Origin: Parachlamydiales bacterium
GTDB lineage: Bacteria; Chlamydiota; Chlamydiia; Chlamydiales; SM23-39
Reading direction: 5' to 3'
Length of the DNA: 64,000 bases
NCBI GenBank assembly: GCA_963800655.1
Contig: CAWDBT010000002.1
Span: forward strand, 641,964-705,963
The translations under genes and the position numbers were made by a program. Under the pieces are notes generated by a model. The model worked only from the letters and a program-made list of their open reading frames with translations. It did not search any database and was not told the DNA's origin. Positions 5,475 through 48,496 of this stretch are shown here, in pieces (position 1 is the first letter of the stretch; each line of letters opens with the position of its first letter).

Positions 5475-5494
5475 TTTTCTAAAGCGATAGTCTC

Positions 5495-7243: not shown

Positions 7244-7909
7244 TCATGCCGGATGGGTCAGCTTTCCATCGGTCAGATGGATTTGCCGATCGGCCATATT
7301 GGCAAACTCAGGGTCATGGGTGACGAGGACAATCGTCGAGGACAGCTCCTTCTTCGCCTTAAATAGAATGTCGATGACCAGCTTGGCATTGGCGGAGTCC
7401 AAAGAACCGGTCGGCTCGTCGGCGAAAATATACTTGGGAGACATGACCAAGGCGCGGGCAATCGCGACCCTTTGCGCTTGTCCCCCCGAGAGCTGCCTCG
7501 GCAAATGGCGGATCTTTTCTTTCAGATCCAATTGCTCCAGCAAGTGGAGCGCGAAATCCCTTTTTTCCTTGGCGCGGTTTTCTCTGCGAGCGGGAAGCAG
7601 GACATTTTCCAATGCGGAAAGCTCGGCGATGAGGTAATGAAATTGGAAGACAAAGCCCGCTTTTCGGTTGCGGAAATCGCAGATCTCTTCGACGCTCATC
7701 TCTTCTATTTTTCTCCCATCGATCTCGATGGAGCCGAAAGAGGGCTTGTCGAGGGTGCTCAATAAGTACAAAAGAGTGCTCTTGCCCGATCCCGATTTCC
7801 CGGTGAGCGCGATGAATTCTCCATTCGCGATCTCCAGATCGATCCCGCTCAATATATCCGCGGGGGGATCTTCGATCCGTTTGCCCGCTTTGATAGCTCG
7901 AATTCCCAT
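7244..7909 (-). CDS. ABC transporter ATP-binding protein (MacB/LolD/DevA type)
   Basis: Walker A GKSGSGKST, signature LSGGQAQRVAIARAL, Walker B IFADEPTGSLD. There is a 1-nt start/stop overlap with the permease gene. Confidence 0.92.
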   Translation of the reverse strand: MGIRAIKAGKRIEDPPADILSGIDLEIANGEFIALTGKSGSGKSTLLYLLSTLDKPSFGSIEIDGRKIEEMSVEEICDFRNRKAGFVFQFHYLIAELSALENVLLPARRENRAKEKRDFALHLLEQLDLKEKIRHLPRQLSGGQAQRVAIARALVMSPKYIFADEPTGSLDSANAKLVIDILFKAKKELSSTIVLVTHDPEFANMADRQIHLTDGKLTHPA

Positions 7910-20396: not shown

Positions 20397-21971
20397 ATGT
20401 CGCAACCCGTGACCAAGGAATTTGGGAAATGGAGATCGTTCTTTTGGCCCGTCCATACGTTCGAGCTCAAAAAATTCCTCCCAATGTTCCTGCTGTTTTT
20501 TTTCATTAATTTCAACTACACGATTCTGCGAGATACGAAAGATACGTTGATCGTAACGGCCCCCGGTTCCGGAGCCGAAGCAATCCCCTTCTTGAAAGTA
20601 TGGGGCGTGCTGCCTTTTGCCATCATCTTCATGCTGATCTATTCCAAGCTCAGCAATATTTTGAGCAAGCAAAAGCTGTTCATGTCGACGATCGCCTTTT
20701 TCGGCGTATTTTTCGCTCTGTTCGCGCTCGTATTCTATCCCCTCCGCGAATCTCTCCATCCGATCGCTTTTGCAGACCAACTGCAAGCGATTCTTCCCAA
20801 AGGATTTGGCGGCCTCGTCGCCATTTTCCGCAACTGGACGTACAGCTTGTTCTATATCATGGCCGAATTGTGGGGCAGCGTTGCGATCTCCCTCTTGTTC
20901 TGGGGATTTGCAAACGATACGACAAAGGTTTCCGAATCCAAGCGCTTTTATGCGATTTTCGGACTAGGCGCAAACCTCGCGATGTATCCATCCGGAATGC
21001 TTGATTAAGAAATTCGCCCTGATCCGCGACTCCGTCGCTCCCTGCGCATATCGATGCTTGGGGCGTCACCCTGAACTATACGCTTGACTGCGGTCTGCAT
21101 CGCTTGCGTATGCGTCATGGCGGTATACTGGTGGATCAATAAAGAAGTCTTAACCGATCCTCGCTTCTTCGATCCGAACGAAGTCAAAAAATCGAAGAAA
21201 GACAAGCCCAAAATGGGCTTGATGGAGAGCTTTATTTTCCTCGGAAAATCTCCTTACATCCTTTGCCTTGCGATCCTCGTCATCAGCTACGGCGTTTCCA
21301 TCAACCTCGTAGAAGTGACCTGGAAAGGCCAGTTGAAGGTTCTATATCCGAATTCCAATGACTACCAGAACTTCATGGGAACGTTCTCCATGCTGACCGC
21401 GACGGCGACCATCTTGATGATGCTCTTCGTCGGCGGCAACGTCATCCGCCGATTCGGCTGGGGCGTTGGAGCATTGATCACCCCCGTCGTTCTTCTGGCG
21501 ACTGGAGTCGGTTTCTTCTCCTGCGTGATTTTCCGCGACTCCCTGATGGGCCTCATCGCCATGATGGGAACAAGTCCGCTGATGCTCGCAGTAGTCTTCG
21601 GAACGGTGCAGAACTTCATCAGCAAATCGGCGAAGTATTCGCTCTTCGATCCAACGAAAGAAATGGCTTATATTCCTCTCGACCAGGAATCTAAAGTCAA
21701 AGGAAAAGCAGCGATCGACGTCGTCGGTGCGCGGCTTGGCAAAGCCGGCGGATCTTTGATCCAGCAAGGCCTGCTCCTCACGTTCGGATCGCTCAGCGCG
21801 ATTACGCCTTATATCGCGGTTATCCTGTTCGCCATCATCGGCGCATGGATCATTGCGGCTCGCGCCCTCAGCCGACGCTTTAATGAGCTCAGCGCTCAGA
21901 AAGGATCGCCTGCGGAAGCCTTGGCTGATAAAGCGAAAACATCTACGACTCCAGCAGGAGCCGCTAGCTAA
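20397..21971 (+). pseudogene. ntt: Npt1/NTT-type ADP/ATP translocase with a scrambled stretch of about 27 codons (three +1 shifts, two in-frame stops)
   Basis: ORFs 20397..21008 and 21084..21971 are in the same frame, and together they form a full-length TLC/NTT protein. Between them the conserved reading runs ...GANLAMYPSGML / IKKFALIRDS / LPAHIDAWGVTLNYTL / TAVCIACV..., moving through frames 0, 1, 2 and back to 0. Confidence 0.85.
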
Positions 21972-22678: not shown

Positions 22679-24262
22679 ATGACCGTTTCTCCAGCCTCAT
22701 CCCATCCTCTTGCCGGTTATAGATTTTCAAACGGCGACACGCCGCTCCATCACGCGATCGAGACTTCCAATCTGCCCCTCCTCAAAAGGGTGATCGAAGC
22801 CGGATTTCCCTTAGAGGAACGAAATGCTTTCAATCTAACTCCTTTTCAACTGGCGGTCTCTCAAAAAAAAATCGATATGGCCGAGCAAATCGCACGCCAT
22901 CTGATCGAGAGCGAGTTTTCCTTAGAAAACCGCCCTGCGATCGAACAACAGCTAAGCCTTTTTAAACAGCAAAAAAGCTTTTATCAATCGCAAACCCGCC
23001 TATCGGAAACGACGCCTCCTCTCCATCTAGCTGCTGCGGTTGGCGATCTAAAATCCCTCCGAGACGCCTATCCCGCATCGCTGCACATCCCCGATAGAGA
23101 CGGGCGCACCCCTCTCGAATATGCGATCATTTTTGGACAAACCAACGCGGCGGCATTCCTGATCGAACATGGTTTCTCGCCGGATTTAACAGTCGGCCTC
23201 GCCGCTTTGAATCAAAAGGCTTCCCTTTATCTCGCCGCCTTGTTCAATCGGGTCGAAATTTTCAAATCTCTTCTCGATAAAGGACTCGATCCCAATCTGC
23301 CTAACTATGCTGGATGGACGCCGGCTCAATGCTTTGCCGCTTCCTGCGATTCTCTGGAAAGTTTGCTCGCGATCAAAGAGATGGGAGCTTCCCTATCGAC
23401 TCCATCGAACATGTCTCCCGCGGCGATTTTCCTCATCCGACAATTCCCTCCCGCTTCCCTCGTCTCTATGGCAGATGCCGTACTGGCTGGAACAAATGCG
23501 GTCAAACTGGCATTGCTCTATTGCTTTTACTCCCTTGCAAGTCAAGAAAACCCCGGATGGGGAACCTATGGCCTCAACAGTTTGCTCATCCCCGCTTTGG
23601 CGGCGACTTACCTCTTCCAGCAAACGCAAATTTTTTCCCTCTGCCCAGAACATTTGAGGGAGGAAACTAAATCCCACACACACCCAGGGTCGATCGTCTC
23701 GTCGGGAATCAGCTCTTCCGTATCGAGCTTCCTCCTGCCTACCGGCTGGTCGTGGATCTTCGTCGCTCCCGGCGTAAGCACCTATGCGATCGGGCGATCT
23801 TGCCTATCGAAAATCAAAACCGCCTGTTCGCAGATCTTCAATCGCCCGGCAGCCGCTCTCGGAGCGACCGCTTTGCATCTATTCAACGGAGCTGCAGTTG
23901 CAGGAGACGTATACCACGCCTACCGATTCCTAAATTGGGTCCGGACAAACCCATTGATTCAAGCTCCCTACAGGGAAAAACTCCGTTCCGAAACTTGTGA
24001 TTTCAAAGCGGGCGCACCCATCGACGCAGGCATCGTTCAACGCGCCAAATTCTGCGCCGCCCCCCCGGGAGAACACTTCAACGAATGGCTCTACAGCTCT
24101 CATCCGAAAGAATATCTGGCAAAAATTACAGAAACTTTCTCACGCAGCGAGGATGTTGCGGATTGCAAGCCCCTATCGACGATGGCTCTGTCAATCCGGA
24201 TCTTTCCCGCTGGACGGGGAAAAAGTGCGATTCGGATGATTTCGATCTTTGGTCGCAAATGA
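22679..24262 (+). CDS. Ankyrin-repeat protein with C-terminal paired hydrophobic (Inc-like) segments; effector candidate
   Basis: ANK repeats (GDTPLHHAIETSNLPLLKRVIEAGFPLE; PPLHLAAAVGDLKSL; DGRTPLEYAIIFGQTNAAAFLIEHG). Then two TM pairs with short loops (AVLAGTNAVKLALLYCFYSLA-SQENPGWGTYG-LNSLLIPALAATYLF). Confidence 0.85.
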   Translation: MTVSPASSHPLAGYRFSNGDTPLHHAIETSNLPLLKRVIEAGFPLEERNAFNLTPFQLAVSQKKIDMAEQIARHLIESEFSLENRPAIEQQLSLFKQQKSFYQSQTRLSETTPPLHLAAAVGDLKSLRDAYPASLHIPDRDGRTPLEYAIIFGQTNAAAFLIEHGFSPDLTVGLAALNQKASLYLAALFNRVEIFKSLLDKGLDPNLPNYAGWTPAQCFAASCDSLESLLAIKEMGASLSTPSNMSPAAIFLIRQFPPASLVSMADAVLAGTNAVKLALLYCFYSLASQENPGWGTYGLNSLLIPALAATYLFQQTQIFSLCPEHLREETKSHTHPGSIVSSGISSSVSSFLLPTGWSWIFVAPGVSTYAIGRSCLSKIKTACSQIFNRPAAALGATALHLFNGAAVAGDVYHAYRFLNWVRTNPLIQAPYREKLRSETCDFKAGAPIDAGIVQRAKFCAAPPGEHFNEWLYSSHPKEYLAKITETFSRSEDVADCKPLSTMALSIRIFPAGRGKSAIRMISIFGRK

Positions 24263-24289: not shown

Positions 24290-24504
24290 CTACGTCTTAA
24301 TTTTAAATTTCTTGAGCAAAGACTTATAGACGAATTATATGACTGCTGTCAAAACATGCAGGAGGCATTTGCTACAGCGCTCGACATCCTTCAAAAAAAC
24401 ACAGCACCTCTAAACCCTGAAAAAGAGTTGACCGCTCGAGCTTATGCAACGGTCTCTGTATAGAATGATTGCCAGCAGAATCTTTTCCTGATAAAATCGC
24501 ATCC

Positions 24505-26312
24505 ATGTTTGACTACAACCGCCGACTGATTCGAAATTTTTCAATTATCGCCCATATCGACCATGGGAAATCGACCTTGGCCGACAGACTGCTCGAATTG
24601 ACTAAGACCGTCGAGCCGAGGGAGATGCAGGAGCAATTTCTCGACAACATGGACCTCGAACGGGAGCGGGGCATCACGATCAAAGCCCGTCCCGTCACCA
24701 TGCTCTATGAGGCGAAAGACGGCCAGACCTATCAGATCAATTTGATCGATACTCCGGGCCACGTCGATTTCGCTTATGAGGTTTCTCGATCTCTTTCCGC
24801 TTGCGAAGGGGCTCTTCTCGTCGTCGATGCGGTTCAAGGCGTGCAAGCGCAAACGCTCGCCAACGTCCATCTCGCCATCGAGCGCAACCTCGAAATCGTG
24901 CCCGTCATCAACAAGATCGATCTGCCGTCCGCAGATGTCGAAGACGTCAAACGGCAAATCGAAGAAGTCATCGGCCTCGACGCGTCTCACGCTTTGCTGA
25001 TTTCGGCTAAAACTGGGATCGGAATCGACGGAGTCCTCGAAAGAATCCTCATCGACATTCCCCCTCCCAAAGAACCTACCGACGATCTGCTTCGAGCCCT
25101 GGTTTTCGATTCCCATTACGATGCGTTTCGCGGAGTCATGGTCTATGTCCGGATCATCAGCGGAGAAATGTCGAAAAAATCCCTCATCCGCTTTATGGCG
25201 ACCGGGAAAATCGTTTGAAGTCAGCGAAGTGGGCAGTTTTCACCCCGACTGAAAAACCAGTCGATATCTTGCGACCCGGAGAAGTGGGCTATTTCGTCGC
25301 CACGATCAAAAATACGTCCGACGTCAAAATCGGCGATACCATCACCCTCCACAAATTCCCGGCTCCAGCTCCGCTGCCCGGATTCAAGATCATCCGCCCC
25401 GTCGTATTCGCAGGAATTTATCCGATCGACTCCTCCGATTTTGAAGCCGTGCGCGACGCCCTTGCCAAACTGCAGCTCAATGATTCGGCTCTCTATGTAG
25501 AACAGGAGAGCAGCCTGGCTCTGGGATTCGGCTTCCGCTGCGGATTTTTAGGCCTTTTGCACCTCGAAATCGTCTTTGAAAGGCTCTCGCGGGAATTCGA
25601 TCTCGACATCATCACGACCGCTCCGAGCGTCATCTATCGCTTTACCCAGACGAACGGCGAATCGATGGAAATCGATAATCCGGCTCGCTATCCCGATCCC
25701 GCTCAAATCGAATTTGTCGAAGAGCCTTGGGTCAAATGCCATATCATGGCTCCGACGGAATATCTCGGCGCGATCATGAGCCTGGGGATGGAAAAGCGAG
25801 GAGAACTCGTCAAAACCGAGACCATGAACGCCTCGCGGCTCATGCTCACCTATCGATTCCCGATGAATGAGATCATCACCGATTTCAACGACAAGCTCAA
25901 ATCGGTGACGCGAGGATATGGCTCGTTCGATTACGAACTCGACACCTATGAAAAAAGCGATATCGTCAAACTCGAAATCCGCGTCAATGAAGAACCCGTC
26001 GATGCATTTTCCTGCCTAGTCCATCGCTCGAAAGCGGAAAGCAAAGGCCGTGCCATTTGCGCAAAACTCAAAGAAGTGATCCCCCAGCAGCTCTTCAAAG
26101 TGCCCATCCAGGCCGCGATCGGAGGGAAGATCATCGCCCGCGAAACCATCAGCGCGATCACGAAAAACGTGACTGCGAAATGCTATGGCGGAGATATCAC
26201 GCGTAAAAGAAAGCTCTGGGAAAAACAGAAAAAGGGCAAAAAGCGCATGAAGGAAATCGGCAAAGTCAATATCCCTCAAAGCGCCTTTATGGAAGTCCTC
26301 AAAGCCGAGTAG
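24505..26312 (+). pseudogene. lepA: Elongation factor 4 (LepA) interrupted by two 1-nt insertions about 28 nt apart
   Basis: ORF 24469..25218 holds the GTPase domain ([31 protein letters not shown]). ORF 25215..26312 holds domains III-V and the LepA C-terminus. The expected ...[34 protein letters not shown] is spread over three frames around 25207-25236. The likely start is MFDYNRR (24505). Confidence 0.9.
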
Positions 26313-29135: not shown

Positions 29136-29164
29136 TTGAGCGAGGAGCTTAACTGGCGTATACT
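29136..29164 (+). promoter_or_regulatory. Putative promoter of tRNA-Arg
   Basis: TTGAGC-N17-TATACT, ending about 13 nt before the tRNA 5' end. Confidence 0.5.
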
Positions 29165-29177
29165 ATTCGTTTTTTAT

Positions 29178-29250
29178 GTCCTCGTAGCTCAGTGGATAGA
29201 GCGGTCGCCTCCTAAGCGACAGGTCGCAGGTTCAACTCCCGCCGAGGGCA
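29178..29250 (+). tRNA. tRNA-Arg (anticodon CCT)
   Basis: Folded by hand as a 73-nt cloverleaf. The acceptor stem is GTCCTCG/CGAGGGC, the D-loop AGTGGATA, and the anticodon stem-loop GTCGC-CTCCTAA-GCGAC. The T-arm is GCAGG-TTCAACT-CCCGC with one A.C mismatch. No CCA is encoded. Confidence 0.9.
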
Positions 29251-29315
29251 TTCGCTCCTTTCATCGATCCTCTAGTCGCCGCTGCTACGTGGCGCGAGTC
29301 AAATCGACAAAGCTT

Positions 29316-29338
29316 CTCTTTGTAGATATCCTCTAAAA
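29316..29338 (-). repeat. PAL-A repeat, half copy (inverted orientation)
   Basis: The reverse complement TTTTAGAGGATATCTACAAAGAG matches the PAL-A arm. It lies between the tRNA and the first island gene. Confidence 0.7.
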
Positions 29339-30049
29339 CTAAACACCTTCTTGCACATATTCAGAAATTAAAAACTCATAATTAGCTGGTTCTATGCCGT
29401 TAAACGGATGAAAACAAAAATGTTTTGCCCGTTTACTCGATCCAATCCAGAATTCAGCTCCCAAATGACCGAACGCATTTTGCTGTGGCAAGGCCGCATG
29501 TGGAAGGATCTCACTCCCGGCATTTTCCTGAATCAACTCGTGATTCAGCGCCCGAATATGAGATGAAGTCGCCCACCAATACGTCCCGCTATAGTGAGGC
29601 CAATGGCCTAAAAATGTAGCTTCGCGATATAAAACTCCGGCCGTATCATAGCCTTCTTTGAGTTTGGCGACACACTTTTCCCATTGGTAAAGAACATGAT
29701 AGTCCATCATCATCCGCCAAAGTTCGGAAATATACGACTGGCGCCACACTCCTTTCGAATGAAAATAACAAATGTAAGCGTCTGTTTTCTGGGCAAATTC
29801 CAACAAAATTCGCATCGTATTTTTCTCTCTAAGAGATATATCAGAAAATCCGCAAACTTGAATTTTATCATATTTCGATACTAATTTCTGGAGCCACTCG
29901 AAATCCTCAGGTCTCTCATACCCCACACCAAGAAATAGAGAATCGGATTGATCGTAGAGACCTGAAATAAATACTTTTGTAAGCTGATCTTGGATTCTAA
30001 ACTTAAAATCATTCGTCAAAAATACGTGATAAAAAACAGCTATTTTCAC
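29339..30049 (-). CDS. Island paralog A of an uncharacterised ~235-aa family (putative glycan-modifying enzyme)
   Basis: Shares the N-terminus MKIAVFYHVFLTNDFKFRIQDQLTK and the motif HWPHYSGTYWWATSSHIRALN with the genes at 30238 and 31098. The start is set at the GTG giving MKIAVFYHV. The gene is AT-rich. Confidence 0.7.
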   Translation of the reverse strand: MKIAVFYHVFLTNDFKFRIQDQLTKVFISGLYDQSDSLFLGVGYERPEDFEWLQKLVSKYDKIQVCGFSDISLREKNTMRILLEFAQKTDAYICYFHSKGVWRQSYISELWRMMMDYHVLYQWEKCVAKLKEGYDTAGVLYREATFLGHWPHYSGTYWWATSSHIRALNHELIQENAGSEILPHAALPQQNAFGHLGAEFWIGSSKRAKHFCFHPFNGIEPANYEFLISEYVQEGV

Positions 30050-30237
30050 AACCACCTTTTTATAAAAAAATTAAATTAATAAACCATTTTTTTAGATTTT
30101 TATTATCGCAAGCAACGAGATATTTCTAATATTGCACCTCTTGCGATTACAAAAAACAATCATCTTTCGCATAGAAAAAATTCGATTTTTGAAAATACAA
30201 AAAAACAACATTAAATCACTAAAAAGATATATTGAAA

Positions 30238-30936
30238 TCATAAATATTCAAAAATACAATGCTCAATTAAATATGGATTTGTTGCTTTAAGCGGATAGAA
30301 ACAGAAATTCTTAGAATTCCGTCTCGATCCGATCCAAAATTCGGCTCCCAAACGATCGAACGCATCTTGCTCTTGCGGAGACGCATGAGGAAGGATCACG
30401 CTCCCAGCATTCCGCTGAATCAACCTGTGATTGAGAGTCCGAATATGGGACGAAGTCGCCCACCAATACGTCCCGCTGTAGTGAGGCCAATGGCCTAAAA
30501 ATGTATCTTCGCAATATAGAATTCCGGCTGTATCATAGCCTTCTTTAAGTTTGGCGACACACTGTTCCCATTGGAAAAGAACGTGATAATCCATAATCAT
30601 CCGCCAAAGACTCGAATTATATGACTGATGATAGAGTCCCTTGGAATGAAAATAACAAATAAAGGCCTCTTGATGATCGCAAAATTGAGATATCAGCATC
30701 ATTGTATGTTTTTCTGCCAACTCTCCATTTTTAAAACCAACCAGTTTAATTTTTTCATATTTAATAAAAAGCCTTTTCAACCAAAAAAAATCATCGTCCC
30801 GATAATAAACAGCCCCAATAACAACAGAATCGCATTTCTCATAAAGACCAGAAACAAATAGCTTCAAAAACTGATCTTGCACTAGAAACTTAAAATCATT
30901 TACTAAGCATACATGATAAAAAACAGCTGTTTTCAT
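30238..30936 (-). CDS. Island paralog B of the same family
   Basis: MKTAVFYHVCLVNDFKF...HWPHYSGTYWWATSSHIRTLN. The C-terminal half is near-identical to paralog A at the DNA level, while the N-terminal half is divergent. Confidence 0.7.
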   Translation of the reverse strand: MKTAVFYHVCLVNDFKFLVQDQFLKLFVSGLYEKCDSVVIGAVYYRDDDFFWLKRLFIKYEKIKLVGFKNGELAEKHTMMLISQFCDHQEAFICYFHSKGLYHQSYNSSLWRMIMDYHVLFQWEQCVAKLKEGYDTAGILYCEDTFLGHWPHYSGTYWWATSSHIRTLNHRLIQRNAGSVILPHASPQEQDAFDRLGAEFWIGSRRNSKNFCFYPLKATNPYLIEHCIFEYL

Positions 30937-31097
30937 AAAAAACCAATAAAATATCATTTAAAATACAAAACTTTGTCGTTTTTTAGACACTTTCTTATTT
31001 TTAAAACATTGACTGGTTGATATATTATATTTATCGAAAATGAACCTATTCGGAATGCACAAACCCACCCCAACTTCCAAAGATTTTAAAATTAAGA

Positions 31098-31796
31098 TCA
31101 TAAATAACTAGAAATATCATATTCAAAAAAATACGGCTCTATTCCATTAAACGGATAAAAACAGTAATGCTTAAAATCAGGCCTCGAGCCAATCCAAAAT
31201 TCGGCTCCCAAATGAGCGAACTCATCTTGCTTTTGCGCAGACGCATACGGAAGTATAATTCTTCCGGCGTTCTGCTGAATCAAGCCGTGATTCAGCGCTC
31301 GAATATGAGATGAAGTCGTCCACCAATAACCCCCGCTATAGTGAGGCCAATGGCCTAAAACTGTGGCTTCGCGATATAAAATTCCCGCCGTATCATAGCC
31401 TTTTTCGAGCTTCGCGACACACTTTTTCCATTGGAAAAGAACGTGATAGTCCAAAATCATCCGCCAAAGATCGCAAGCATAAGACTGCTGCGACACTCCT
31501 TTTAAATGAAAATAAAAAATGTAAGCATCGTTTTGATTTGCAAAATCCAACAAAACTCGCATCGTATTTTTCTCTCTAAGGGATGGATTAGAAAATCCAC
31601 AAACTTTAATTTTATTATATTTCGATACTAAATTTTGAAGCCAATCGAAATCCTCAGGCCGCTCGTACCCGGCTCCAAGAAATAGAAAATCGCATTGATC
31701 GTAGAGGCCGGAGATAAACAATTTTGTAAGCTGATCTTGAATTCGAAATTTAAAATCGTTCGTCAAAAATACATGATAAAAAACAGCTATTTTCAT
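31098..31796 (-). CDS. Island paralog C of the same family
   Basis: MKIAVFYHVFLTNDFKFRIQDQLTK...HWPHYSGGYWWTTSSHIRALN. By eye it is roughly three quarters identical to paralog A. Confidence 0.7.
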   Translation of the reverse strand: MKIAVFYHVFLTNDFKFRIQDQLTKLFISGLYDQCDFLFLGAGYERPEDFDWLQNLVSKYNKIKVCGFSNPSLREKNTMRVLLDFANQNDAYIFYFHLKGVSQQSYACDLWRMILDYHVLFQWKKCVAKLEKGYDTAGILYREATVLGHWPHYSGGYWWTTSSHIRALNHGLIQQNAGRIILPYASAQKQDEFAHLGAEFWIGSRPDFKHYCFYPFNGIEPYFFEYDISSYL

Positions 31797-31914
31797 AAAA
31801 ACCTTTTATAAAAAAACCAACAACAAATACACCTAAAAAATCTTTGAATTAAGATATGCTCTTAGACTAGACAACTCGTTCTGAGATCAAAATCCGACCT
31901 CGAGTCAAAGCAGC

Positions 31915-32850
31915 TTATAAACACATCTCAATAATTGCTTTCTTCGGATTTTCTAGATTGCATTTCCACCAAGAGATTACCTCTTGCAACCTCTCATTCA
32001 AAGATATCTCAGGCTGCCAATGCAGTTCATCTCGAGCCCTGGATACTTCGGCCACAATCGAGGGGGTGTCCAGAATAGATGGCGCAAGTTTTCCGAACTG
32101 CAGCAAATGCTCGCCCCCAATTTGCTCAGCCAAACACAATGCGAGATCCTTTAACGAAATGCCTCGCCCCGAAGCGATATTGATCCCTCCTTCGACAGCC
32201 CTGTCCAACAGAGCTGCAAATCCCTCTCCGGCATCTTTCGAATGGAGGAAATCCCTGATTTGGTTCCCATGGGAACAGGGAATTTCCTCCCCTTTCAGCA
32301 ATCCTCGAATCACAGCCGGTACGAATCGATTGGGATGTTCAGAGGGACCATATAGGTAAAACAAATATCCCCAGGCAAACTCCATCCCGGTTTGTCTGGC
32401 AAATGCCTCGAGCATTAAATATAGCGCTCTTTTTGATGCTCCATAGATGGTCTTCGGACGAAAACGGCTCGTACGTTCTTCGTAGATCCGGCCGGCTTCA
32501 TATTCCGTACAGCTTCCAGCGACGACCATTCGGCGTCCGCCGGATTCGGCAAAACACCTGGCCAAATGCAAACTCGCATTCACCCATTTCCAATTGTCCA
32601 GAGAAGACCAAAATGCTCCATGATCCGTTACCCAGGCGAAGTGGAGCAAATGCGTGAATGAATGCTCGGAGCACAACTTGGCGATTTTCACCTCGTCGAA
32701 GAGATCGAGCTCATGCCAGAACACCCTCTGATCCATGTCAGACGTTTTTTTCCGGCAAATCGCGTGTACTTCATACGATCTTTCATGAAGAGCCGGAAGC
32801 GACCATCTTCCAATAAATCCCGTCCCTCCGGTCACCAATACCTTTTTCAC
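31915..32850 (-). CDS. NAD-dependent epimerase/dehydratase (extended SDR; probable NDP-4-keto-sugar reductase)
   Basis: Rossmann motif VTGGTGFIGR and catalytic YGASK. It is the last gene of the sugar-nucleotide operon. Confidence 0.85.
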   Translation of the reverse strand: MKKVLVTGGTGFIGRWSLPALHERSYEVHAICRKKTSDMDQRVFWHELDLFDEVKIAKLCSEHSFTHLLHFAWVTDHGAFWSSLDNWKWVNASLHLARCFAESGGRRMVVAGSCTEYEAGRIYEERTSRFRPKTIYGASKRALYLMLEAFARQTGMEFAWGYLFYLYGPSEHPNRFVPAVIRGLLKGEEIPCSHGNQIRDFLHSKDAGEGFAALLDRAVEGGINIASGRGISLKDLALCLAEQIGGEHLLQFGKLAPSILDTPSIVAEVSRARDELHWQPEISLNERLQEVISWWKCNLENPKKAIIEMCL

Positions 32851-33374
32851 GTCAAGTCCTCATATCTTCGATCTTTTTCGGACATGCAGGTGATTTCAAG
32901 AGGCCAATGAATTCCCAAAGCAGGGTCATTCCAACGCACTCCCCGCTCGCTTTCCGGCCGATAGCAAGCCGATACGTAATAAAACAGTTCCGTATCGTCT
33001 TCCAATGTCTGAAATCCATGGGCAAACCCCCTCGGGATATAGATCATCTCGCGTTTGTTTTCATGCAGTTCAATCGCGATCCATTCCTTATACGTCGGGG
33101 AATCAGGGCGCAGATCGACGATGACGTCGTAGAGAGAACCCTTTGTGCAGAAAATCACCTTTACCTCCTGATGAGGAGCGATTTGCCGATGCAATCCCCT
33201 CAGGGTTCCTTTGATCCGGTTGCGAGAGATGTTGCATTCGACATAATCCGATTCGAGATTGGCCTGTTTGAACGCCTCTTTCGAAAACGATTTGACGAAC
33301 TCCCCTCTTTCATCCGAAAAAGACTTAAGTTCTATTACATAAGCACCCGTCAATCGCAACGGTTTAAACAGCAT
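32847..33374 (-). CDS. NDP-4-keto-6-deoxyhexose 3,5-epimerase (RmlC-like cupin)
   Basis: 175-aa cupin with RmlC-type motifs (RGLHRQ..., YIPRGFAHGFQTLEDDTELFY). Confidence 0.85.
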   Translation of the reverse strand: MLFKPLRLTGAYVIELKSFSDERGEFVKSFSKEAFKQANLESDYVECNISRNRIKGTLRGLHRQIAPHQEVKVIFCTKGSLYDVIVDLRPDSPTYKEWIAIELHENKREMIYIPRGFAHGFQTLEDDTELFYYVSACYRPESERGVRWNDPALGIHWPLEITCMSEKDRRYEDLT

Positions 33375-34593
33375 GGATCTCCTCTTCGATCGAAAGGGGG
33401 AATAAAAATTTCCCGCCCCAGTTTTGAATGTACGAAAGCTGCTCGGTGATTTCGCGTTTTAAATTCCAAGGAAGAACGAGGACGTAATCTGGACGAACTT
33501 CCTCTATTTTTTCGATTCCGAAGATCGGAATGCGGCTGCCCGGGAGAAAATGTCCTTGTTTATATGGATTGACATCGACTGTAAACGGAAGGAGATCAGG
33601 ATTGACCTTGCAATAATTTAACAAGGTGTTTCCCTTGGCAGGAGCGCCATAGCCGACGACTGATTTTCCCGTCTTCTTTAAATCTTGGAGCTTGGCTACG
33701 AGCCTGTTTCGGATCATTTTAGCCCGTTCGTTAAAGGCCAAATACGTTTTGAGATATCCCAATCCAAACATGTGCTCTTTTGCCCGCAATGCATCGACTC
33801 TCTCTTCGATTTTTCTAGAAGCTCCCGCATGCTGTAGATATACCCTGAGGGATCCGCCGTGCGTGGATAGTTCTTCGACATCGAATATTTCCAGATCGTG
33901 CTGTTCGAAGATTTTTTCGACGCTCAGCAAGGAAAAATAAGAAAAATGTTCGTGATAGATCGTGTCGAATTGGTTTTGTTCGATGAGATTTAAAAGATGA
34001 GGGAACTCTAAGGTGATCGCTCCATCTGGCGCGAGCAGGCATCTAAACCCTTCTACAAAATCATGGAGATCGGGAACATGCGCCAACACATTGTTGCCGA
34101 TCATCAAATCGGCTTTTTCTCCGCGATCCCGCAGGGTTTGAGCGAGCCGTTCCCCAAAAAACTCCGAGATCGTAGGAACGCCTCGTTCAATTGCAATTTT
34201 CGCCACATTTGCAGCCGGTTCGATCCCGAGGACCGGAATTTGCCGAGCTAAGAAATGCTGCAAAAGATACCCGTCATTACTGGCGATCTCGACGACTTTG
34301 TTCGACGAGTCCAATTGAAGGCGTTTTTGAATGTCCTCCGCATATTTTTTTCCATGGGCAATCCAGCTTTCAGAACAGGAGGAAAAGTAAAAATATTCTC
34401 CAAAAATCTCCTCGGGCGTTTGAAATTGCCCGAGCTGCACGAGAAAACACGATCTGCATACATAGGCGCAGAGAGGAAATGCGATCTCTTTTCCATCTGC
34501 TTGTTTTAAATAGGCGTTTGCCGGCGGCGTAGCTCCTAAATCGCAAAAACAATCGAATAGTTCCGCATGACAAGCTCTGCATTTTTGACTCAT
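33364..34593 (-). CDS. SAM-dependent NDP-hexose C-methyltransferase (TylC3-like)
   Basis: N-terminal Cys4 zinc ribbon (CRAC...CFC...CRSC), a class I methyltransferase core (VVEIASNDGYLL) and a C-terminal C-methyltransferase domain (HEHFSYFS). Confidence 0.82.
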   Translation of the reverse strand: MSQKCRACHAELFDCFCDLGATPPANAYLKQADGKEIAFPLCAYVCRSCFLVQLGQFQTPEEIFGEYFYFSSCSESWIAHGKKYAEDIQKRLQLDSSNKVVEIASNDGYLLQHFLARQIPVLGIEPAANVAKIAIERGVPTISEFFGERLAQTLRDRGEKADLMIGNNVLAHVPDLHDFVEGFRCLLAPDGAITLEFPHLLNLIEQNQFDTIYHEHFSYFSLLSVEKIFEQHDLEIFDVEELSTHGGSLRVYLQHAGASRKIEERVDALRAKEHMFGLGYLKTYLAFNERAKMIRNRLVAKLQDLKKTGKSVVGYGAPAKGNTLLNYCKVNPDLLPFTVDVNPYKQGHFLPGSRIPIFGIEKIEEVRPDYVLVLPWNLKREITEQLSYIQNWGGKFLFPLSIEEEIHAV

Positions 34594-35576
34594 CTAATTC
34601 CCTTAATTAAATAGTTTTTGTACCAATCAATCGTCCGTTTCAATCCTTCTTTCAGCGGATAGCGAGATCTCCAACGGAGCCGCTCCTTGGCCTTATCGGC
34701 GTTGAGAGACTGATGCTCGATTTCATTTGAAGCGCATCCCAAAATGTTCGCCTGAATATGCTCGCAGCCCATGAGCCCCTGAATCGCGCCTACGATTTCC
34801 AGAACACTCGAAGGGGCTTCCGGGCCGAAATTAAACGCTTCTCCTTCGACATCGGAGCGATCTAATTGTTCAGCCAACAATAAATATGCTTCGACCGCAT
34901 CTTCGACATAGACGTAGTCGCGAGTATATAAACCATTGCTGCGGATAAGAGGAGGCGTTCCCAATAGAAAACTGCGGATGCTCCCTGGAACAATCCGGCT
35001 CCAATTCATATCCCGCCCTCCATAGATATTCCCGCATCGAGCGATCGCCACTGGTAGGCGATAGGTATGCGCGTAGGAAAGCGCCAAGAGATCGGTGCAA
35101 GATTTAGATACGTCATAAGGATGCTTGCCGCAAAGAGGCATGTCCTCGACATAAGGCAGGCGATCGCTCGACCCGTAGGCCTTGTCGCTCGACGCCACCA
35201 CGATGCGTCGAACGAGTCCGAAAGATCTTCGGCATGCCTCCAAGAGATGGTATGTTCCCCGGATATTGGCTTCAAACGTCCCAAGCGGATTGCGCAAAGC
35301 AGTGCCTACAATCGTCTGCGCTCCTAAATGAAATACCGTATCGATTTCGTATTTATGAATCGCCCGCTCAAGCGCATCGAGATCTTCGAGAGAGCCCGAT
35401 ACGAACTCGACCTGTTGATCGAACGTGCCGCGGCAAGTCAATCGATCTGCTGGAGTATCGTGGATGAGAGCGACGACATCCGCTTTCCGATCTATCAGCG
35501 CTTGCATGAGCCACGACCCTACGAGACCGGTCGCTCCTGTGATAAAAACTCTTTTTTTCTCCCAAAATATATTCAT
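34590..35576 (-). CDS. rfbG: CDP-glucose 4,6-dehydratase
   Basis: FITGATGLVGSWL Rossmann motif and YDVSK catalytic motif. It is RfbG-like throughout and is coupled to rfbF by a 4-nt overlap. Confidence 0.88.
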   Translation of the reverse strand: MNIFWEKKRVFITGATGLVGSWLMQALIDRKADVVALIHDTPADRLTCRGTFDQQVEFVSGSLEDLDALERAIHKYEIDTVFHLGAQTIVGTALRNPLGTFEANIRGTYHLLEACRRSFGLVRRIVVASSDKAYGSSDRLPYVEDMPLCGKHPYDVSKSCTDLLALSYAHTYRLPVAIARCGNIYGGRDMNWSRIVPGSIRSFLLGTPPLIRSNGLYTRDYVYVEDAVEAYLLLAEQLDRSDVEGEAFNFGPEAPSSVLEIVGAIQGLMGCEHIQANILGCASNEIEHQSLNADKAKERLRWRSRYPLKEGLKRTIDWYKNYLIKGIR

Positions 35577-36406
35577 TTAGATTTCACCCTCGACTTGATT
35601 CGTTCCGTCAATTTCGCATCCAGGCCGCTTGAATGATCAGCCCATTTTTTCCAAGGCGCTTTCCCGGATTCCCAAAGGGACTCGAGCAGACGATGTTCCC
35701 GCAGGGTATCCATCGGCTGCCAAAAGCCATCGTGAAAATAAGCCATTAATTCTTTTGTCTCGGCGAGCCGTTCGAGCGGTTCTTTTTCCCAAAGAGTCTC
35801 ATCTCCTTCGATCAAATCGAGGACTTCGGGTTCCAGCACAAAAAATCCCCCGCTCACGCGCCCCTCGAGAAGCTGGTTTTTTTCCGTGAATTCTTCGACG
35901 CAATGGCCGTTAAGAGAAAATCCGCCGAATCGAGCGGGTGGATGAACTGCAGTCAGAGTCGCCAGCCGCCCATGTTCCTTATGGAATGCGACTAGATCCG
36001 CGATATTGACATCGGATAGGCCATCGCCATAGGTCATCATAAATGTTTCGTTGCCGAGATATTGTTTTAGCCTCTTCAAGCGACCTCCGGTTTGCGTAGT
36101 CGACCCGGTATCGATCAGATGGATCTTCCAATTCGGCTGGTTGCCTTTGTAAATCGTCGTTTGCCCCGTCGATAAATCCAAAGACAGATCATGGCTCAAC
36201 GCATAGAAGTCGAGAAAATACTTCTTCACTATTTCCGCTTTATATCCCAATGCGATGATGAATTCGGAATAACCGAATCTCGCATAGGAATTGAGAATAT
36301 GCCAGAGGATCGGTCTCCCGCCGATTTCTACCATCGGCTTTGGAACCAGACCCGTTAATTCAGACAATCGAGTGCCCAAACCGCCTGCTAAAATCACTGT
36401 TTTCAT
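35573..36406 (-). CDS. rfbF: Glucose-1-phosphate cytidylyltransferase
   Basis: MKTVILAGGLGTRLSELTGLVPKPMVEIGGRPILWHI is the canonical RfbF N-terminus. The start is re-assigned from 36514 to the ATG at 36406. Confidence 0.9.
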   Translation of the reverse strand: MKTVILAGGLGTRLSELTGLVPKPMVEIGGRPILWHILNSYARFGYSEFIIALGYKAEIVKKYFLDFYALSHDLSLDLSTGQTTIYKGNQPNWKIHLIDTGSTTQTGGRLKRLKQYLGNETFMMTYGDGLSDVNIADLVAFHKEHGRLATLTAVHPPARFGGFSLNGHCVEEFTEKNQLLEGRVSGGFFVLEPEVLDLIEGDETLWEKEPLERLAETKELMAYFHDGFWQPMDTLREHRLLESLWESGKAPWKKWADHSSGLDAKLTERIKSRVKSK

Positions 36407-36449
36407 AGAAAAACCCGAATAGTTATTTTTATTCTTTTCAAGTTTATAA

Positions 36450-37155
36450 TTAATGAGCTTCAAACCTGCGATCGCAATCTCGATAATGTCCGACATGCAC
36501 CTGAGGAACTTCAATCAATAAACTTTTGTCAATTTCTTTATAAATTGAGTGTTCGATATCGACATCGGTAAACATTGAATAATAAAACATTTTATAAAGC
36601 AGATCCATTGCATTTGAATATAATTTAACAGGAAATGACCACAATACCATCTGAAGATAAAAAGGATAGATTTCTCTATCTTGCCTCCAAGATGGCTCTC
36701 TTTTTCTCAGAACATATTTTTCAGCGCATTCCGTGCTTTCATAATAAGACAGGTCAAATGAATCCATTAATTTATATCTACCAGTCATCTTAAATACTCT
36801 TTTTATATCACCAAAACCGATTCTGTCTTCTATGAATTTCAAACCTTCTATCACAGAATGAACGACTAGAGCGTTCTTTTTAAAAGCGACCCCTGGAACG
36901 GGATCGTATTTTTTTAAAACAGATACGCCATAAACATTTTTCAAACTAATTAATAAATCGGCTTTTTTTTGAATTATCTTATTTGCCTCAGAACTTTCAT
37001 GGCTGATTGAATTTTCTACAACGACAATCAGAGCAGAAGGATCTTTTTTTCTAATGCTATCTACACAATCCAGAACTTGACAGAGCCTTTCTTCTCGGTG
37101 AAAACGCGCTCACATCGCTATAAATGGAAGACGTTAAAACAAACAAATTCCTCAT
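36450..37155 (-). pseudogene. Island family-2 paralog D (GT-A-like?), broken by a 1-nt insertion
   Basis: ATG at 37155 gives MRNLFVLTSSIYSDVSAFSP. The reading then continues in another frame as EERLCQVLDCVDSIRKKDPSALIVVVENS...MTGRYKLMDSFDLSYY (track ORF 36450..36944). It is collinear with paralog E. The span is 706 nt (3n+1) and the shift lies near 37090-37098. Confidence 0.7.
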
Positions 37156-37181
37156 AACACACCTTTTTAAATTATAAAATA

Positions 37182-37874
37182 TCAATGAATCTCTACACTT
37201 CCATTTCCATCATGCTGATGCATGACATGCAACATTGGAATCTGAATGTGAGCTTTATTCAAAAACTCTTCGAAAAAAAACTTCTCTACAAATGTTATTC
37301 CTAATAAACATTGATAAAATGCTCGATGAAGGATCTCCAATATATCTGGAATCAAATCGAAAGAAAACGACCATAAATCCAGAGGAATTACCGAAAACAC
37401 CTCTTCGCAATTCGGCCTGCGCCACATCACCGGCTCTGCAAAAATATATTTCCCGACAAACTCAGGATTATCATAATAAGATATATCAAAAGAATCCATC
37501 AGTTGATATCGACCTGTCATTCGAAAGATACGTTTTATTTTACAACCCGACAATTTCTGTAAAAACTTTAAAGATTCAACCACAGAATGAATTTCCAAAG
37601 CTCCCTTAACAGGAGGCCACATATTTTTTTTCAAAATAGAAACAATCATATGATCTTTTACAAAAAGAAAAAAATCAACTTTCTCACTGAGAAATGGAAC
37701 AAACTCCGAATCGTTTTGATCTAAAGAATTATCCACCAGAAGAACAATCGACTCCGGATCTTTTAATTTAATTCTTTCGATCGCAGATCGAACTTGCATC
37801 GCCCTGGATTTTGGATCGAAACAACTAACATCGCTAAAAACAGAAGAGGTTAATAAAAAGCAATTACGACCCAT
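37182..37874 (-). CDS. Island family-2 paralog E (uncharacterised, GT-A-like?)
   Basis: MGRNCFLLTSSVFSDVSCFDP...IVLLVDNSLD...MTGRYQLMDSFDISYY. The gene is AT-rich. The 'hydrophobic-strand + D/E-N-S' segment resembles the nucleotide-sugar binding strand of GT-A transferases, but this is a weak match. Confidence 0.6.
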   Translation of the reverse strand: MGRNCFLLTSSVFSDVSCFDPKSRAMQVRSAIERIKLKDPESIVLLVDNSLDQNDSEFVPFLSEKVDFFLFVKDHMIVSILKKNMWPPVKGALEIHSVVESLKFLQKLSGCKIKRIFRMTGRYQLMDSFDISYYDNPEFVGKYIFAEPVMWRRPNCEEVFSVIPLDLWSFSFDLIPDILEILHRAFYQCLLGITFVEKFFFEEFLNKAHIQIPMLHVMHQHDGNGSVEIH

Positions 37875-37926
37875 ACAAGCCATGTTTTATTTTTTTCAAA
37901 ACATAGCGACTATTATTATTAAAAAT

Positions 37927-38595
37927 CTATTTCTTTTTGAAATAATAATCGATTCCGTCGGCGATGCCTCGGGCGATTTTTTCCAAATACAGGGGATCTT
38001 TAAGAAAGGCCCGTTCCTGGGGATTCGAAATAAATCCCCCTTCGACGAGAACCGCGGGCATCTCGGTTTCTCGGATCACATATAAATTGCCGCGTTTGAC
38101 GCCTCGCGAAAGAGCCTGAGTCCGGCGAATCACCCTTGTCAGAATGGAATTGGCGAGCCTGCGCGAAGAATTCGCGCGGCGGACATTTTCCGACGAATCG
38201 CAAAAAAACACCTCGACGCCCTGAGCGGAAGGGGTGCGCGAAGAGTTGTAATGGATGCTGACAAATAAGTCGGTCCCCCCTTTATTGGCCAATTCGACCC
38301 GTTTCGGCAACGGAATAAACGTATCCGATTGCCTTGTGAGAAGCACGTGATAGCCGAGTTGAGCGAGATATTTTTTCACGAGTCTGGCGGTTTGCAATGC
38401 GAGTCGTTTCTCCTCGCAATAGGGATTGCGCCCTTTCGCTCCGAGATCTTGTCCCCCATGTCCGGCATCGATCGTAATCGAGGGGACTATTCCTAGCTGT
38501 CCCACAGCGGCGGCAACCCGCTCTTGACGGACGGCAGCAGAGGCAACCCAGGGGAGAAATAAAAAAAGCCACAACTGCCTTGCAATTGCATTCAT
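37927..38595 (-). CDS. amiA: N-acetylmuramoyl-L-alanine amidase (Amidase_3)
   Basis: Signal peptide followed by ITIDAGHGGQDLGAKG...SIHYNS...EGGFISN motifs. Confidence 0.9.
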   Translation of the reverse strand: MNAIARQLWLFLFLPWVASAAVRQERVAAAVGQLGIVPSITIDAGHGGQDLGAKGRNPYCEEKRLALQTARLVKKYLAQLGYHVLLTRQSDTFIPLPKRVELANKGGTDLFVSIHYNSSRTPSAQGVEVFFCDSSENVRRANSSRRLANSILTRVIRRTQALSRGVKRGNLYVIRETEMPAVLVEGGFISNPQERAFLKDPLYLEKIARGIADGIDYYFKKK

Positions 38596-47803: not shown

Positions 47804-48496
47804 TTTTCCAAAGATAGAAAATACAAATACTCCCTCGGCAAAGGCATCTTTCATCAAAGAAACCGCCTTTAAAAGATCCTCCTTGGAACTTTCCCAATCG
47901 AGGAGCAATACGGATTTTCCGTTTCCGATTTGATCATCCTTCCAACCGCCTTCCCTGCGACGCACTAACCTCCATTGAAATGGACCGATCCACTTCAGAA
48001 CTAACTCGCGGCTGTATTCGATATCCAGCATCCGCGCTGTTTCCTCTGCGATTACTTCGAGAGTCCGGCTTTTTCCCCAAGATGGAATGATGGCGATTCG
48101 ATCAAAAGAATCCCATTCGAGGCGATCGAGCTGTACGATCAAAAATGAAGCCATCGCACGGCGCAAAGCTTCTTCCGACTCCCTCAGCAAAAGCGCCTGC
48201 ATCTGCGCAGCCGCATAGGTCGGCTCGAACAGATAGGCATAGGGCGATCGAAACGCATCGGAGGAATCGCATCGAGGGCAAAGAGCGGCTTCCCAATCCA
48301 GCGAAGAAAAGCACTTGCGGCAGCGCACTCTGGGATCCGCTGCGATCAGCTGCTCCATGCACATTTCGCAGAGGAGTTTCTCGCAAGGCCTTTTGCACAT
48401 CGGGCAAATCGGAGGGAATACGAGATCAACCGGCGCTCGGCTCAGGAACCCTATTAGTTTTTTGCAGATGGTAAGAGGGTTCTTCCAACGTTCCAT
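47801..48496 (-). CDS. ComF-family (phosphoribosyltransferase-like) protein with N-terminal double zinc ribbon
   Basis: CPMCKRPC..CEMC and RCRKC...CPRC motifs. The C-terminal PRT-like core has a degenerate PRPP loop (VLLLDWESS). The start is uncertain, because the ORF overlaps the end of tamB. Confidence 0.65.
   Translation of the reverse strand: MERWKNPLTICKKLIGFLSRAPVDLVFPPICPMCKRPCEKLLCEMCMEQLIAADPRVRCRKCFSSLDWEAALCPRCDSSDAFRSPYAYLFEPTYAAAQMQALLLRESEEALRRAMASFLIVQLDRLEWDSFDRIAIIPSWGKSRTLEVIAEETARMLDIEYSRELVLKWIGPFQWRLVRRREGGWKDDQIGNGKSVLLLDWESSKEDLLKAVSLMKDAFAEGVFVFSIFGK

Follow-up and report, generated by a model that had tools for sequence, protein, structure and literature searches.

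Genomic islands that carry glycan-biosynthesis genes are already known, and several described systems resemble in one respect or another the locus considered here, a block of ten minus-strand genes (8.7 kb, within 29.1-37.9 kb) that occupies the interval from tRNA-Arg(CCT) to amiA in a 64,000-nucleotide stretch of contig CAWDBT010000002.1 from a Parachlamydiales bacterium (assembly GCA_963800655.1); the whole of this stretch is referred to below as the window. The block combines a five-gene operon for a sugar linked to cytidine diphosphate (CDP) with five copies of two protein families, DUF8361 (genes A1-A3) and a family without a name (genes B1 and B2). We consider it likely to be a horizontally acquired, lineage-restricted island for glycan decoration at the 3' end of the tRNA gene, in which the operon would supply a CDP-sugar to five predicted transferases. 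What is novel about it is the two uncharacterised, virus-enriched families of predicted transferases, together with their occurrence in Chlamydiota.

The nearest parallels for the operon come from 3-C-methyl sugars of other bacteria. TcaB9, KijD1, MtmC and TylC3 belong to the thymidine diphosphate (TDP)-mycarose, kijanose and tetronitrose pathways of actinomycetes, where they act on TDP-linked 2,6-dideoxy antibiotic sugars. The C-methyltransferase of the island is homologous to them over its full length, aligning end to end with MtmC, KijD1 and TcaB9 (E 1e-76 to 1e-60), and has in common with them the four cysteines of the zinc site (CxxC...CxxC) and the YHEH catalytic motif (in the form FDTIYHEH), but its context predicts a CDP-linked 6-deoxyhexose that would enter a glycoconjugate of the cell. 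A second parallel is the rhizobial trio of ddhA, ddhB and an "NDP-hexose 3-C-methyltransferase" (S. meliloti SMb21416-21418, PMC4053727), which has the same first two steps; on rhizobial megaplasmids the same type of C-methyltransferase follows, at 54-56% identity to the island enzyme. Because this set of cytidylyltransferase, dehydratase and C-methyltransferase is common on rhizobial megaplasmids, in polysaccharide loci, the operon itself can be recognised, judging by its genes, as a known bacterial module. However, the rhizobial clusters sit in exopolysaccharide and capsular polysaccharide loci with Wzc/Wza, whereas the island is without export genes and has arrays of virus-type transferases on either side. 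The third parallel, Coxiella burnetii, is an obligate intracellular bacterium whose phase I lipopolysaccharide (LPS) O-antigen carries virenose (6-deoxy-3-C-methyl-gulose). There, too, a dehydratase and a TylC3-type methyltransferase are followed by an epimerase/reductase, although the proposed route starts from GDP-mannose or TDP-glucose (guanosine and thymidine diphosphate sugars) rather than from CDP-glucose, and the genes lie within a large O-antigen region; virenose has moreover been demonstrated chemically (PMC3539893), while the sugar of the island is deduced from genes. As regards position, the block resembles tRNA-linked islands and the plasticity-zone-like hotspots of chlamydiae in being inserted precisely where a tRNA 3' end meets the gene next to it, in its deviant composition, and in the empty sites and varied cargo seen in relatives; it differs from tRNA-linked islands in having no integrase, att direct repeat or mobility gene, and in being older than a single strain.

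The block and its two boundaries comprise the following features.

29177..29251, plus strand: tRNA-Arg(CCT), found by ARAGORN and matched in Rfam (63 bits); its 3' end faces the island and forms the left insertion boundary.
29339..30055, minus strand: A1, a DUF8361 (PF27674) paralog by precomputed assignment, scoring 259 bits with the family hidden Markov model (HMM); GC content at third codon positions (GC3) 0.38; predicted GT-A-like transferase.
30238..30957, minus strand: A2, a DUF8361 paralog whose likely start gives 232 amino acids (aa; MKTAVFYH...); predicted GT-A-like.
31098..31796, minus strand: A3, a DUF8361 paralog and the copy given a structure model; predicted GT-A-like.
31915..32850, minus strand: reductase, an extended short-chain dehydrogenase/reductase (SDR) of the nucleoside diphosphate (NDP)-sugar oxidoreductase type, presumed 4-ketoreductase; Pfam Epimerase, E 2.7e-42.
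32847..33374, minus strand: RmlC-family NDP-4-keto-6-deoxyhexose 3,5-epimerase; TIGR01221, 179 bits; RmlC structures in the Protein Data Bank (PDB), E 2e-41.
33364..34593, minus strand: NDP-hexose 3-C-methyltransferase of the TylC3/TcaB9/MtmC/KijD1 family; Pfam Methyltransf_13, _23 and _14; PDB 4rv9, E 1e-76.
34590..35576, minus strand: NDP-glucose 4,6-dehydratase with its best matches among the CDP-glucose 4,6-dehydratases; TIGR02622, 212 bits (below cut-off).
35573..36406, minus strand: glucose-1-phosphate cytidylyltransferase (RfbF/DdhA); TIGR02623, 362 bits.
36450..37155, minus strand: B1, a full-length copy of the B family with one +1 frameshift at the T4 run 37101-37104.
37182..37883, minus strand: B2, a B-family copy without a Pfam match; predicted transferase of GT-A fold.
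37927..38595, minus strand: amiA (Amidase_3; Pfam E 1.3e-54), with which the backbone begins and which forms the insertion boundary on the right.

This agrees with the sequence-only reading made earlier of this stretch, which had described ten same-strand genes from tRNA-Arg to amiA as three paralogs, a five-gene CDP-sugar operon and two further paralogs, apart from the start that it gave at 29136, where there is only a spurious plus-strand open reading frame (ORF) overlapping the tRNA. The operon is tightly packed, the stops and starts of neighbouring genes overlapping across all five, and its cytidylyltransferase probably starts at ATG 36406 rather than at TTG 36514, since the match to TIGR02623 spans residues 37-291 of the longer ORF. 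The tRNA was the sole match in an Rfam scan, a scan for promoters and terminators gave nothing better than shuffled sequence, and no island protein has a hydrophobic segment of transmembrane grade.

That the block was inserted at this place is best seen by comparison with related genomes. The window is by its sequence chlamydial, from a lineage without a close representative: among 185,579 species genomes the best matches of its MurE are to metagenome-assembled genomes (MAGs) of Chlamydiota at 48-55% identity, and among its genes are two for nucleotide transporters of the TLC type, one for a fusion of YtgC with YtgR, and others for ankyrin proteins and a kinase of eukaryote type. About ten loci from Chlamydiota MAGs keep the gene order mraW-pbp3-murE-amiA. 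In three relatives (L011, L012 and L314) the amiA stop lies only about 7-80 nucleotides (nt) from the 3' end of tRNA-Arg(CCT), with gnd following, and in a fourth (L006) amiA and gnd are 130 nt apart with no tRNA detected between them; these are empty sites. In three more relatives this amiA/tRNA-Arg/gnd junction is filled with other genes, for ankyrin-repeat proteins, for a toxin and antitoxin of the AbiEii type and for a PARG-like protein (L003 6511-10471; L005 13022-17016; L047 1441-3360). Because four relatives are empty and three carry different cargo, the block is an insertion and the amiA/tRNA-Arg junction a variable cargo hotspot of this chlamydial clade, the 8.7-kb block being one cargo; the earlier statement that these genes do not belong to the conserved backbone is thereby upheld. 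A metagenome scan using amiA produced no closer relative, just one more empty site (L314, already mentioned). One further MAG locus (L009 1-5528) has the order gnd, tRNA-Arg, murE, a gene of 385 aa, amiA, with the tRNA abutting murE and amiA displaced, which is a local rearrangement.

The composition of the block is also deviant, and not uniformly so. GC3 is 0.56-0.68 in the backbone, 0.48-0.54 in the sugar operon, 0.35-0.38 in the A genes and 0.28-0.31 in the B genes, while the intergenic spacers fall to about 0.29 GC. The mosaic that the sequence-only reading had proposed is therefore real as far as the AT-rich A and B genes are concerned, but the operon that it took to have normal GC lies slightly below the backbone. 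Pfam and NCBIfam matches to the ten island products include no integrase, there is no mobility gene in the island, and no second copy of the tRNA 3' end was found within 3 mismatches, so that on both points these searches, like that reading, came out negative. The locus thus has the location at a tRNA 3' end, the deviant composition and the absence from related genomes, and is without the integrase and the att direct repeat of the classical tRNA island; the horizontal acquisition that had been suggested fits its composition and its position at the tRNA 3' end.

Two or three close relatives carry versions of the island, and from two of these something can be said about its age. In a Logan contig (L070) an amiA 3' end (93% aa identical) is followed directly by an HtrL/YibB gene, two ORFs, three B copies, the five-gene operon (69-85% aa identity) and a GT25 gene, the HtrL/YibB and GT25 genes replacing the A array. 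The HtrL/YibB-family gene and the two ORFs lie at 245-2448 of that contig; the ORFs (216 and 203 aa) have no Pfam match, are neither A nor B, and may be further glycan enzymes. In an ENA contig (L001) the operon is 93% identical in nucleotides (93-99% aa), and after it come three A copies, among which an A fragment and a B copy are interspersed. The island is thus shared with L070 and probably with L001, and its acquisition predates these lineages: it is older than one strain, yet confined to a narrow group.

The same comparison indicates that the genes are maintained. Against L001 the operon has dN/dS values (ratios of nonsynonymous to synonymous change) of 0.046 for the C-methyltransferase, 0.075 for the SDR and 0.033 for one other operon gene, at dS 0.16-0.45, so that by this test the operon is functional and under strong purifying selection. 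The A genes form a tandem array, their DNA repeats being 84-85% identical over 300 nt at spacings of 887 and 860 nt, which is far beyond chance. Their products share 62-75% aa identity; A2 is 62% identical to A1, and likewise to A3, with dN/dS of about 0.32-0.35. Over all comparisons the A copies have dN/dS of 0.14-0.35 and every copy keeps the family-invariant residues, and the A copies, too, are on these measures still under selection. The turnover of the two parts is very different: comparison of the window with L001 gives 93-99% identity for the operon proteins and 75% at best for the A copies, and A copies in corresponding positions are no closer to one another than those that do not correspond. 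Judged by these identities, a conserved donor pathway is flanked by transferase arrays that turn over fast, which is the pattern expected of a glycan whose structure varies between strains.

It could be argued that the block is in decay as the remnant of an island, or that viral DNA was joined to a chlamydial contig in an assembly chimera, as B1 is frameshifted and the A and B segments are very AT-rich with relatives that are mostly viral. However, L070, an independent assembly, joins its amiA 3' end to the same island, L001 repeats the junction of operon and A genes, and all but one of the ten ORFs are intact, at dN/dS values far under 1. The frameshift itself was read directly from the sequence: B1 runs from ATG 37155 to a stop at 36450 with one extra base in its T4 run, its two halves match the B-family HMM in two frames (positions 19-226 at 36453-37109 and positions 2-24 at 37060-37209), and deleting one T restores the family motif FSxExRxxQ. 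In the same window the housekeeping gene lepA (24469-26312, plus strand) falls into two ORFs, one with the GTP_EFTU domain and one with LepA_C, because its A4 run (25207-25210) has one A too many, removal of which restores the reading, and a TLC ATP/ADP transporter gene is split into plus-strand ORFs at 20397-21008 and 21084-21971, which match profile positions 5-200 and 227-491. As lepA and the TLC gene are split as well, which suggests errors at homopolymers in the assembly, the B1 frameshift is probably a sequencing error rather than decay, and to explain the block as a remnant or a chimera is very improbable. The split TLC gene (20397-21971) is either the third interrupted gene of the window or a real pseudogene.

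Turning to what the operon would make, the cytidylyltransferase scores 362.4 bits with TIGR02623, above the cut-off of 300.25 and covering positions 1-255 of the 255 in the profile, and the epimerase scores 179.1 bits with TIGR01221, above its cut-off of 155.75. The dehydratase has as its best PDB matches 1rkx (8e-41) and 1wvg (2.5e-39), both CDP-glucose 4,6-dehydratases, ahead of the TDP (dTDP) enzymes. The C-methyltransferase has the three-domain architecture of its family, with Methyltransf_13, _23 and _14 all above the Pfam cut-offs; an exact look-up of the protein returned no record. For the SDR no NCBIfam model exceeded its cut-off, and its PDB matches are generic SDR sugar enzymes. There are no DdhC/DdhD genes for 3-deoxygenation in the island, which implies that the route is not that of abequose, tyvelose or paratose. 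These Pfam, NCBIfam and PDB matches lend support to the modified 6-deoxyhexose pathway already proposed from the sequence. In outline, and by analogy with what is established for deoxysugars, RfbF would convert glucose-1-phosphate to CDP-D-glucose, from which the dehydratase would form CDP-4-keto-6-deoxyglucose; the TcaB9/MtmC-type enzyme would then methylate C3, the RmlC-like epimerase would invert C5, or both C3 and C5, and the SDR would finally reduce C4. The product that we infer is a CDP-6-deoxy-3-C-methyl-hexose. Its stereochemistry is not predictable from sequence, but it would probably belong to the L series, as a sugar of the 3-C-methyl-rhamnose or 3-C-methyl-talose type.

The evidence that the A and B genes encode the transferases for this sugar is of two kinds, namely predicted folds and genomic neighbourhoods. 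Precomputed annotation places all three A proteins in Pfam PF27674, a model too recent to be in the local copy of Pfam, so that a local scan gave no hit for them. An AlphaFold2 (AF2) model of A3, built on a 10-sequence alignment, has a pLDDT of 75 and a pTM of 0.78, and in Foldseek searches of the PDB it matches GtrB, RmlT and B3GalT5 weakly (E 1.6e-4 to 3e-4, TM-score 0.4-0.5). Much better are its matches in BFVD to phage and giant-virus proteins (TM 0.6-0.7), among them gp342 of Synechococcus phage S-SRM01, proteins of uncultured caudoviruses and, from Klosneuvirus and Harvfovirus, "glycosyltransferases" with several domains. The residues conserved in the family are Y95, H97, K99 and G100 (YFHxKG), W111, H152, S154, G155, W158, W159 and E199, falling in the motifs YFHxKG, WR, PHYSGxxWW and ExW. 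Comparing the DUF8361 profile with PDB sequences gave matches at chance level only, and A3 matched nothing among the PHROGs. The closest homolog outside the chlamydiae (43% identity) is on a virus-like 257-kb scaffold (L002). Elsewhere DUF8361 occurs at up to three places in an uncultured megaphage of 735 kb (LR756501.1 / LR756503.1, ~306.4-307.0 kb), and S-SRM01 has one copy (NC_070963.1 gp342; L152 8001-8705) between tail-fibre/baseplate genes and a cluster of sulfotransferase, glycosyltransferase (GT) and epimerase genes; the megaphage and S-SRM01 copies are either annotated as hypothetical or not annotated.

A possible counterpart of this family with an established activity is found in a chlorovirus. 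Domain 2 of PBCV-1 A064R is a cation-independent, inverting alpha-L-rhamnosyltransferase without homology to known glycosyltransferases; it is followed by a methyltransferase domain 3, and it has a homologue in Pithovirus annotated as GT10 (PMC9614988). DUF8361 resembles it in having no DXD motif, in being often followed by Methyltransf_24 in the same viral protein, and in occurring with a GT10 domain. In addition, the DUF8361 model matches a BFVD protein of 638 aa, the same length as A064R and a candidate for it, at E 3e-11; this is far better than any PDB match although the structure of A064R domain 1 has been solved (PMC9614988), which implies that if the protein is the A064R orthologue the match is not to domain 1. 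It differs in that the chlamydial DUF8361 proteins have a single domain and lie beside a CDP-sugar pathway, whereas A064R uses UDP-L-rhamnose (linked to uridine diphosphate, UDP).

The B family has a clearer fold prediction. The B proteins have no sequence match in Pfam, NCBIfam, PHROG or the PDB, and a word-indexed homology search with B2 returned only B2 itself, while an exhaustive HMMER search of a library of 1.84 billion proteins returned 197 relatives. The AF2 model of B2 has a pLDDT of 95 and a pTM of 0.92 and gives 332 Foldseek matches in the PDB at E <= 1e-3, headed by GT6 enzymes (BoGT6a, alpha-3GalT, GTA/GTB) and the GT8 enzyme glycogenin (E 2e-7, TM 0.50-0.57), so that on the model the B family is confidently predicted to have a GT-A fold of GT6/GT8 type. 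Profile-profile comparison shows A and B to be unrelated families. With GT-A-type predicted folds in both, the five transferase-like genes that the sequence-only reading had counted are plausible.

The second kind of evidence comes from viruses. IMG/VR viral contigs contain at least 499 matches to the A family and at least 200 to the B family (the latter scanned for with a 12-member B alignment). Of 80 loci around A genes, 21 have a sugar C-methyltransferase within 8 kb, in most cases as the immediate neighbour (10 of 37 once the loci are dereplicated at 65% identity), and 10 include a B-family gene; around B genes the corresponding counts are 14 of 80 for the C-methyltransferase and 11 of 80 for an A gene. 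As such C-methyltransferases are so rare among viral contigs (at least about 600 of 2.9 million carry one), the association is far above any plausible background. In one T4-like phage contig that includes UvsX (L122), genes for an SDR-dehydratase, B, a C-methyltransferase, A and a GT1 overlap one another, and on the virus-like scaffold L002 the order is B, A, methyltransferase, RmlD-like, C-methyltransferase. Viral DUF8361 domains are also fused to GT2, Methyltransf_24 and DUF6445, as well as to GT10, and one lies within a protein of 1052 aa that its source names as a GT25-family glycosyltransferase.

There are, however, a number of observations that weigh against reading the block as a pathway with its own transferases. 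In the operon, the dehydratase scores 211.9 bits with TIGR02622, below the equivalog cut-off of 278.45, and the SDR is assigned its reductase role by position only; B1, as assembled, is frameshifted. As to the A family, the A3 model is of medium confidence, its weak PDB matches include IspD/TarI cytidylyltransferases at similar scores, every database name for DUF8361 is "hypothetical", and a conserved DXD motif is not evident; nor is there a DXD in the B family, where D70 is the only invariant acidic residue. Finally, no A or B gene neighbours any of the 80 viral C-methyltransferases that come closest to the chlamydial one (31-50% identity), and those C-methyltransferases that are linked to A or B form a different clade (26-31% identity). 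This last point can also be turned round, since a link of A and B with C-methyltransferases that holds across different clades of the latter would be functional and not merely inherited, and from the sequences the chlamydial island appears to pair a donor operon of bacterial type with transferases of virus type.

Some of these points would be accommodated if A and B were not glycosyltransferases at all, being instead nucleotidyl- or phosphotransferases, sugar-tailoring enzymes, or host-directed effectors using host UDP-sugars, and only loosely linked to the operon. The PDB folds matched by DUF8361 do include the nucleotidyltransferases IspD, TarI and CobY, the fold matches of B include the toxin-type glycosyltransferase YeGT, neither family has the DXD motif, and effector-like ankyrin genes stand at the same junction in relatives. 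However, metal-independent GT-A enzymes without a DXD exist, one of them being BoGT6a, the top structural match of B, so that the missing motif weakens the case for glycosyltransferases and does no more. The domain fusions with GT2, GT10, GT25 and an O-methyltransferase, and a tight operon linkage with C-methyltransferase and dehydratase genes that is found again in unrelated viruses as well as on three chlamydial contigs, likewise make this alternative quite improbable. A host-directed role in particular, which had been raised earlier as a possible destination of the glycoconjugate, is unlikely if the transferases use the CDP-sugar, because they would then be coupled to a donor made by the bacterium.

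If A and B are indeed glycosyltransferases, the five small, soluble, cytoplasmic proteins of GT-A fold (three DUF8361, two B) would add the C-methyl sugar and neighbouring residues one step at a time to an acceptor on the cytoplasmic face of the membrane that pre-exists and is exported anyway, either the lipid A core with 3-deoxy-D-manno-octulosonic acid (Kdo), giving a product like a lipooligosaccharide (LOS) that follows the normal LPS route, or a protein. Stepwise extension of this kind is favoured because no priming transferase, flippase, polymerase, ligase or exporter is encoded among the island genes of the window, L001 or L070, and the island is accordingly not a self-sufficient O-antigen cluster. 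As candidate acceptors, the lipid A-Kdo core is favoured by the HtrL/YibB and GT25 neighbours in L070, and protein by the viral distribution of the A and B families.

The second of these choices amounts to a separate explanation, in which the block is a module for protein glycosylation rather than for LPS or LOS, A and B building a short C-methyl-sugar glycan in the cytoplasm on surface or secreted proteins, as happens in chloroviruses, mimiviruses and glycosylated phage virions. Both families are found mainly in viral contigs (the IMG/VR matches counted above), and viruses have no LPS of their own; the S-SRM01 gene lies among tail-fibre, baseplate and glycan genes; the DUF8361 model matches multidomain "glycosyltransferases" of giant viruses; and giant-virus glycosyltransferases modify capsid and fibril proteins (PMC9614988). 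Set against this, the HtrL/YibB and GT25 genes of L070 belong to families usually annotated with LPS/LOS core synthesis, the island encodes neither a candidate acceptor protein nor an oligosaccharyltransferase, and the phage copies could equally modify envelope glycans of the host. A dedicated protein-glycosylation module is therefore a possible but somewhat doubtful alternative.

A conventional O-antigen or capsule, with the priming transferase, the Wzx/Wzy or Wzm/Wzt system and the ligase encoded elsewhere and the island providing the sugar and the serotype-specific transferases, would have precedents, since a Neorhizobium megaplasmid has the same set of C-methyltransferase, RfbF and RfbC beside export genes of Wzc/Wza type and Coxiella puts its 3-C-methyl-6-deoxyhexose, virenose, into O-antigen (PMC3539893). 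In the window itself, the minus-strand genes at 10061-11660 encode an ABC-2 permease of 271 aa and an ABC ATPase of 265 aa whose size and architecture are Wzm/Wzt-like, but this architecture is generic, and 18 kb separate the pair from the island. No priming, flippase, polymerase, ligase or exporter family was matched by island genes in the window, L001 or L070, and arrays of small soluble transferases are more like the stepwise systems of LOS and viruses than like O-unit assembly on undecaprenyl phosphate. To our knowledge, chlamydiae studied so far are without O-antigen, and we know of no complex chlamydial surface glycan beyond rough LPS of the Kdo-lipid A type. For these reasons an O-antigen or capsule is unlikely here.

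It must be remembered in this connection that rough LPS is known for the Chlamydiaceae. The sequence-only reading expected it of the present lineage too, which goes further than the evidence reaches, as that expectation has its basis in Chlamydiaceae and this deep-branching lineage has a MurE only 48-55% identical to that of any representative. Its description of the product as an undescribed surface glycoconjugate likewise says more about the product's nature than the data allow. What can be said is that an intact C-methyl deoxysugar pathway under selection, together with five predicted transferases, makes it probable that at least one environmental chlamydial lineage produces more than rough LPS, and an extra chlamydial glycan would bear on host recognition and on the evolution of the symbionts.

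The stepwise decoration favoured above also provides a concrete functional hypothesis for DUF8361 and for the unnamed GT-A family, both of which occur widely among the phages of aquatic environments and among giant viruses, repeatedly beside sugar C-methyltransferases. Taken to its full extent, such a hypothesis would make DUF8361 and B two new glycosyltransferase families for 3-C-methyl 6-deoxyhexoses, with DUF8361 as the bacterial and phage counterpart of A064R domain 2; together with sugar C-methyltransferases the two families would form a module that moves between cyanophages, jumbo phages, giant viruses and chlamydiae living in protists, and the present chlamydia would coat its LOS or surface proteins with a virus-like glycan whose structure the fast-diversifying arrays vary between strains. 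In this extended form the proposal is speculative and, as a whole, rather unlikely to hold. The locus would in any case be a convenient system for testing activity, as it has a complete donor pathway of bacterial type and single-domain A and B proteins. Searches of the literature gave nothing of relevance on DUF8361, on vinelose, or on genes for CDP-sugars or O-antigen in chlamydiae.

Some other features of the window may be mentioned briefly. At 5543-7084 on the minus strand, within a locus at 4197-9926, there is an AT-rich gene (GC 0.37, GC3 0.32) with a DUF4135 domain, flanked by an OEP outer-membrane gene and by a MacB-type ABC transporter with HlyD genes; this locus may be another foreign insertion, perhaps for peptide modification and export. 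A 1531-aa ORF at 48426-53021 (minus strand) has backbone-like composition and no Pfam match. In addition to the split TLC gene there is a second, divergent one at 2634-4034. An ABC-3 permease fused to a DtxR-type repressor (YtgC-YtgR-like; 15960-17276, minus strand), a 527-aa ankyrin-repeat protein (22679-24262, plus strand) and a eukaryote-type Ser/Thr kinase (53962-55176, plus strand) are consistent with a host-associated chlamydia.

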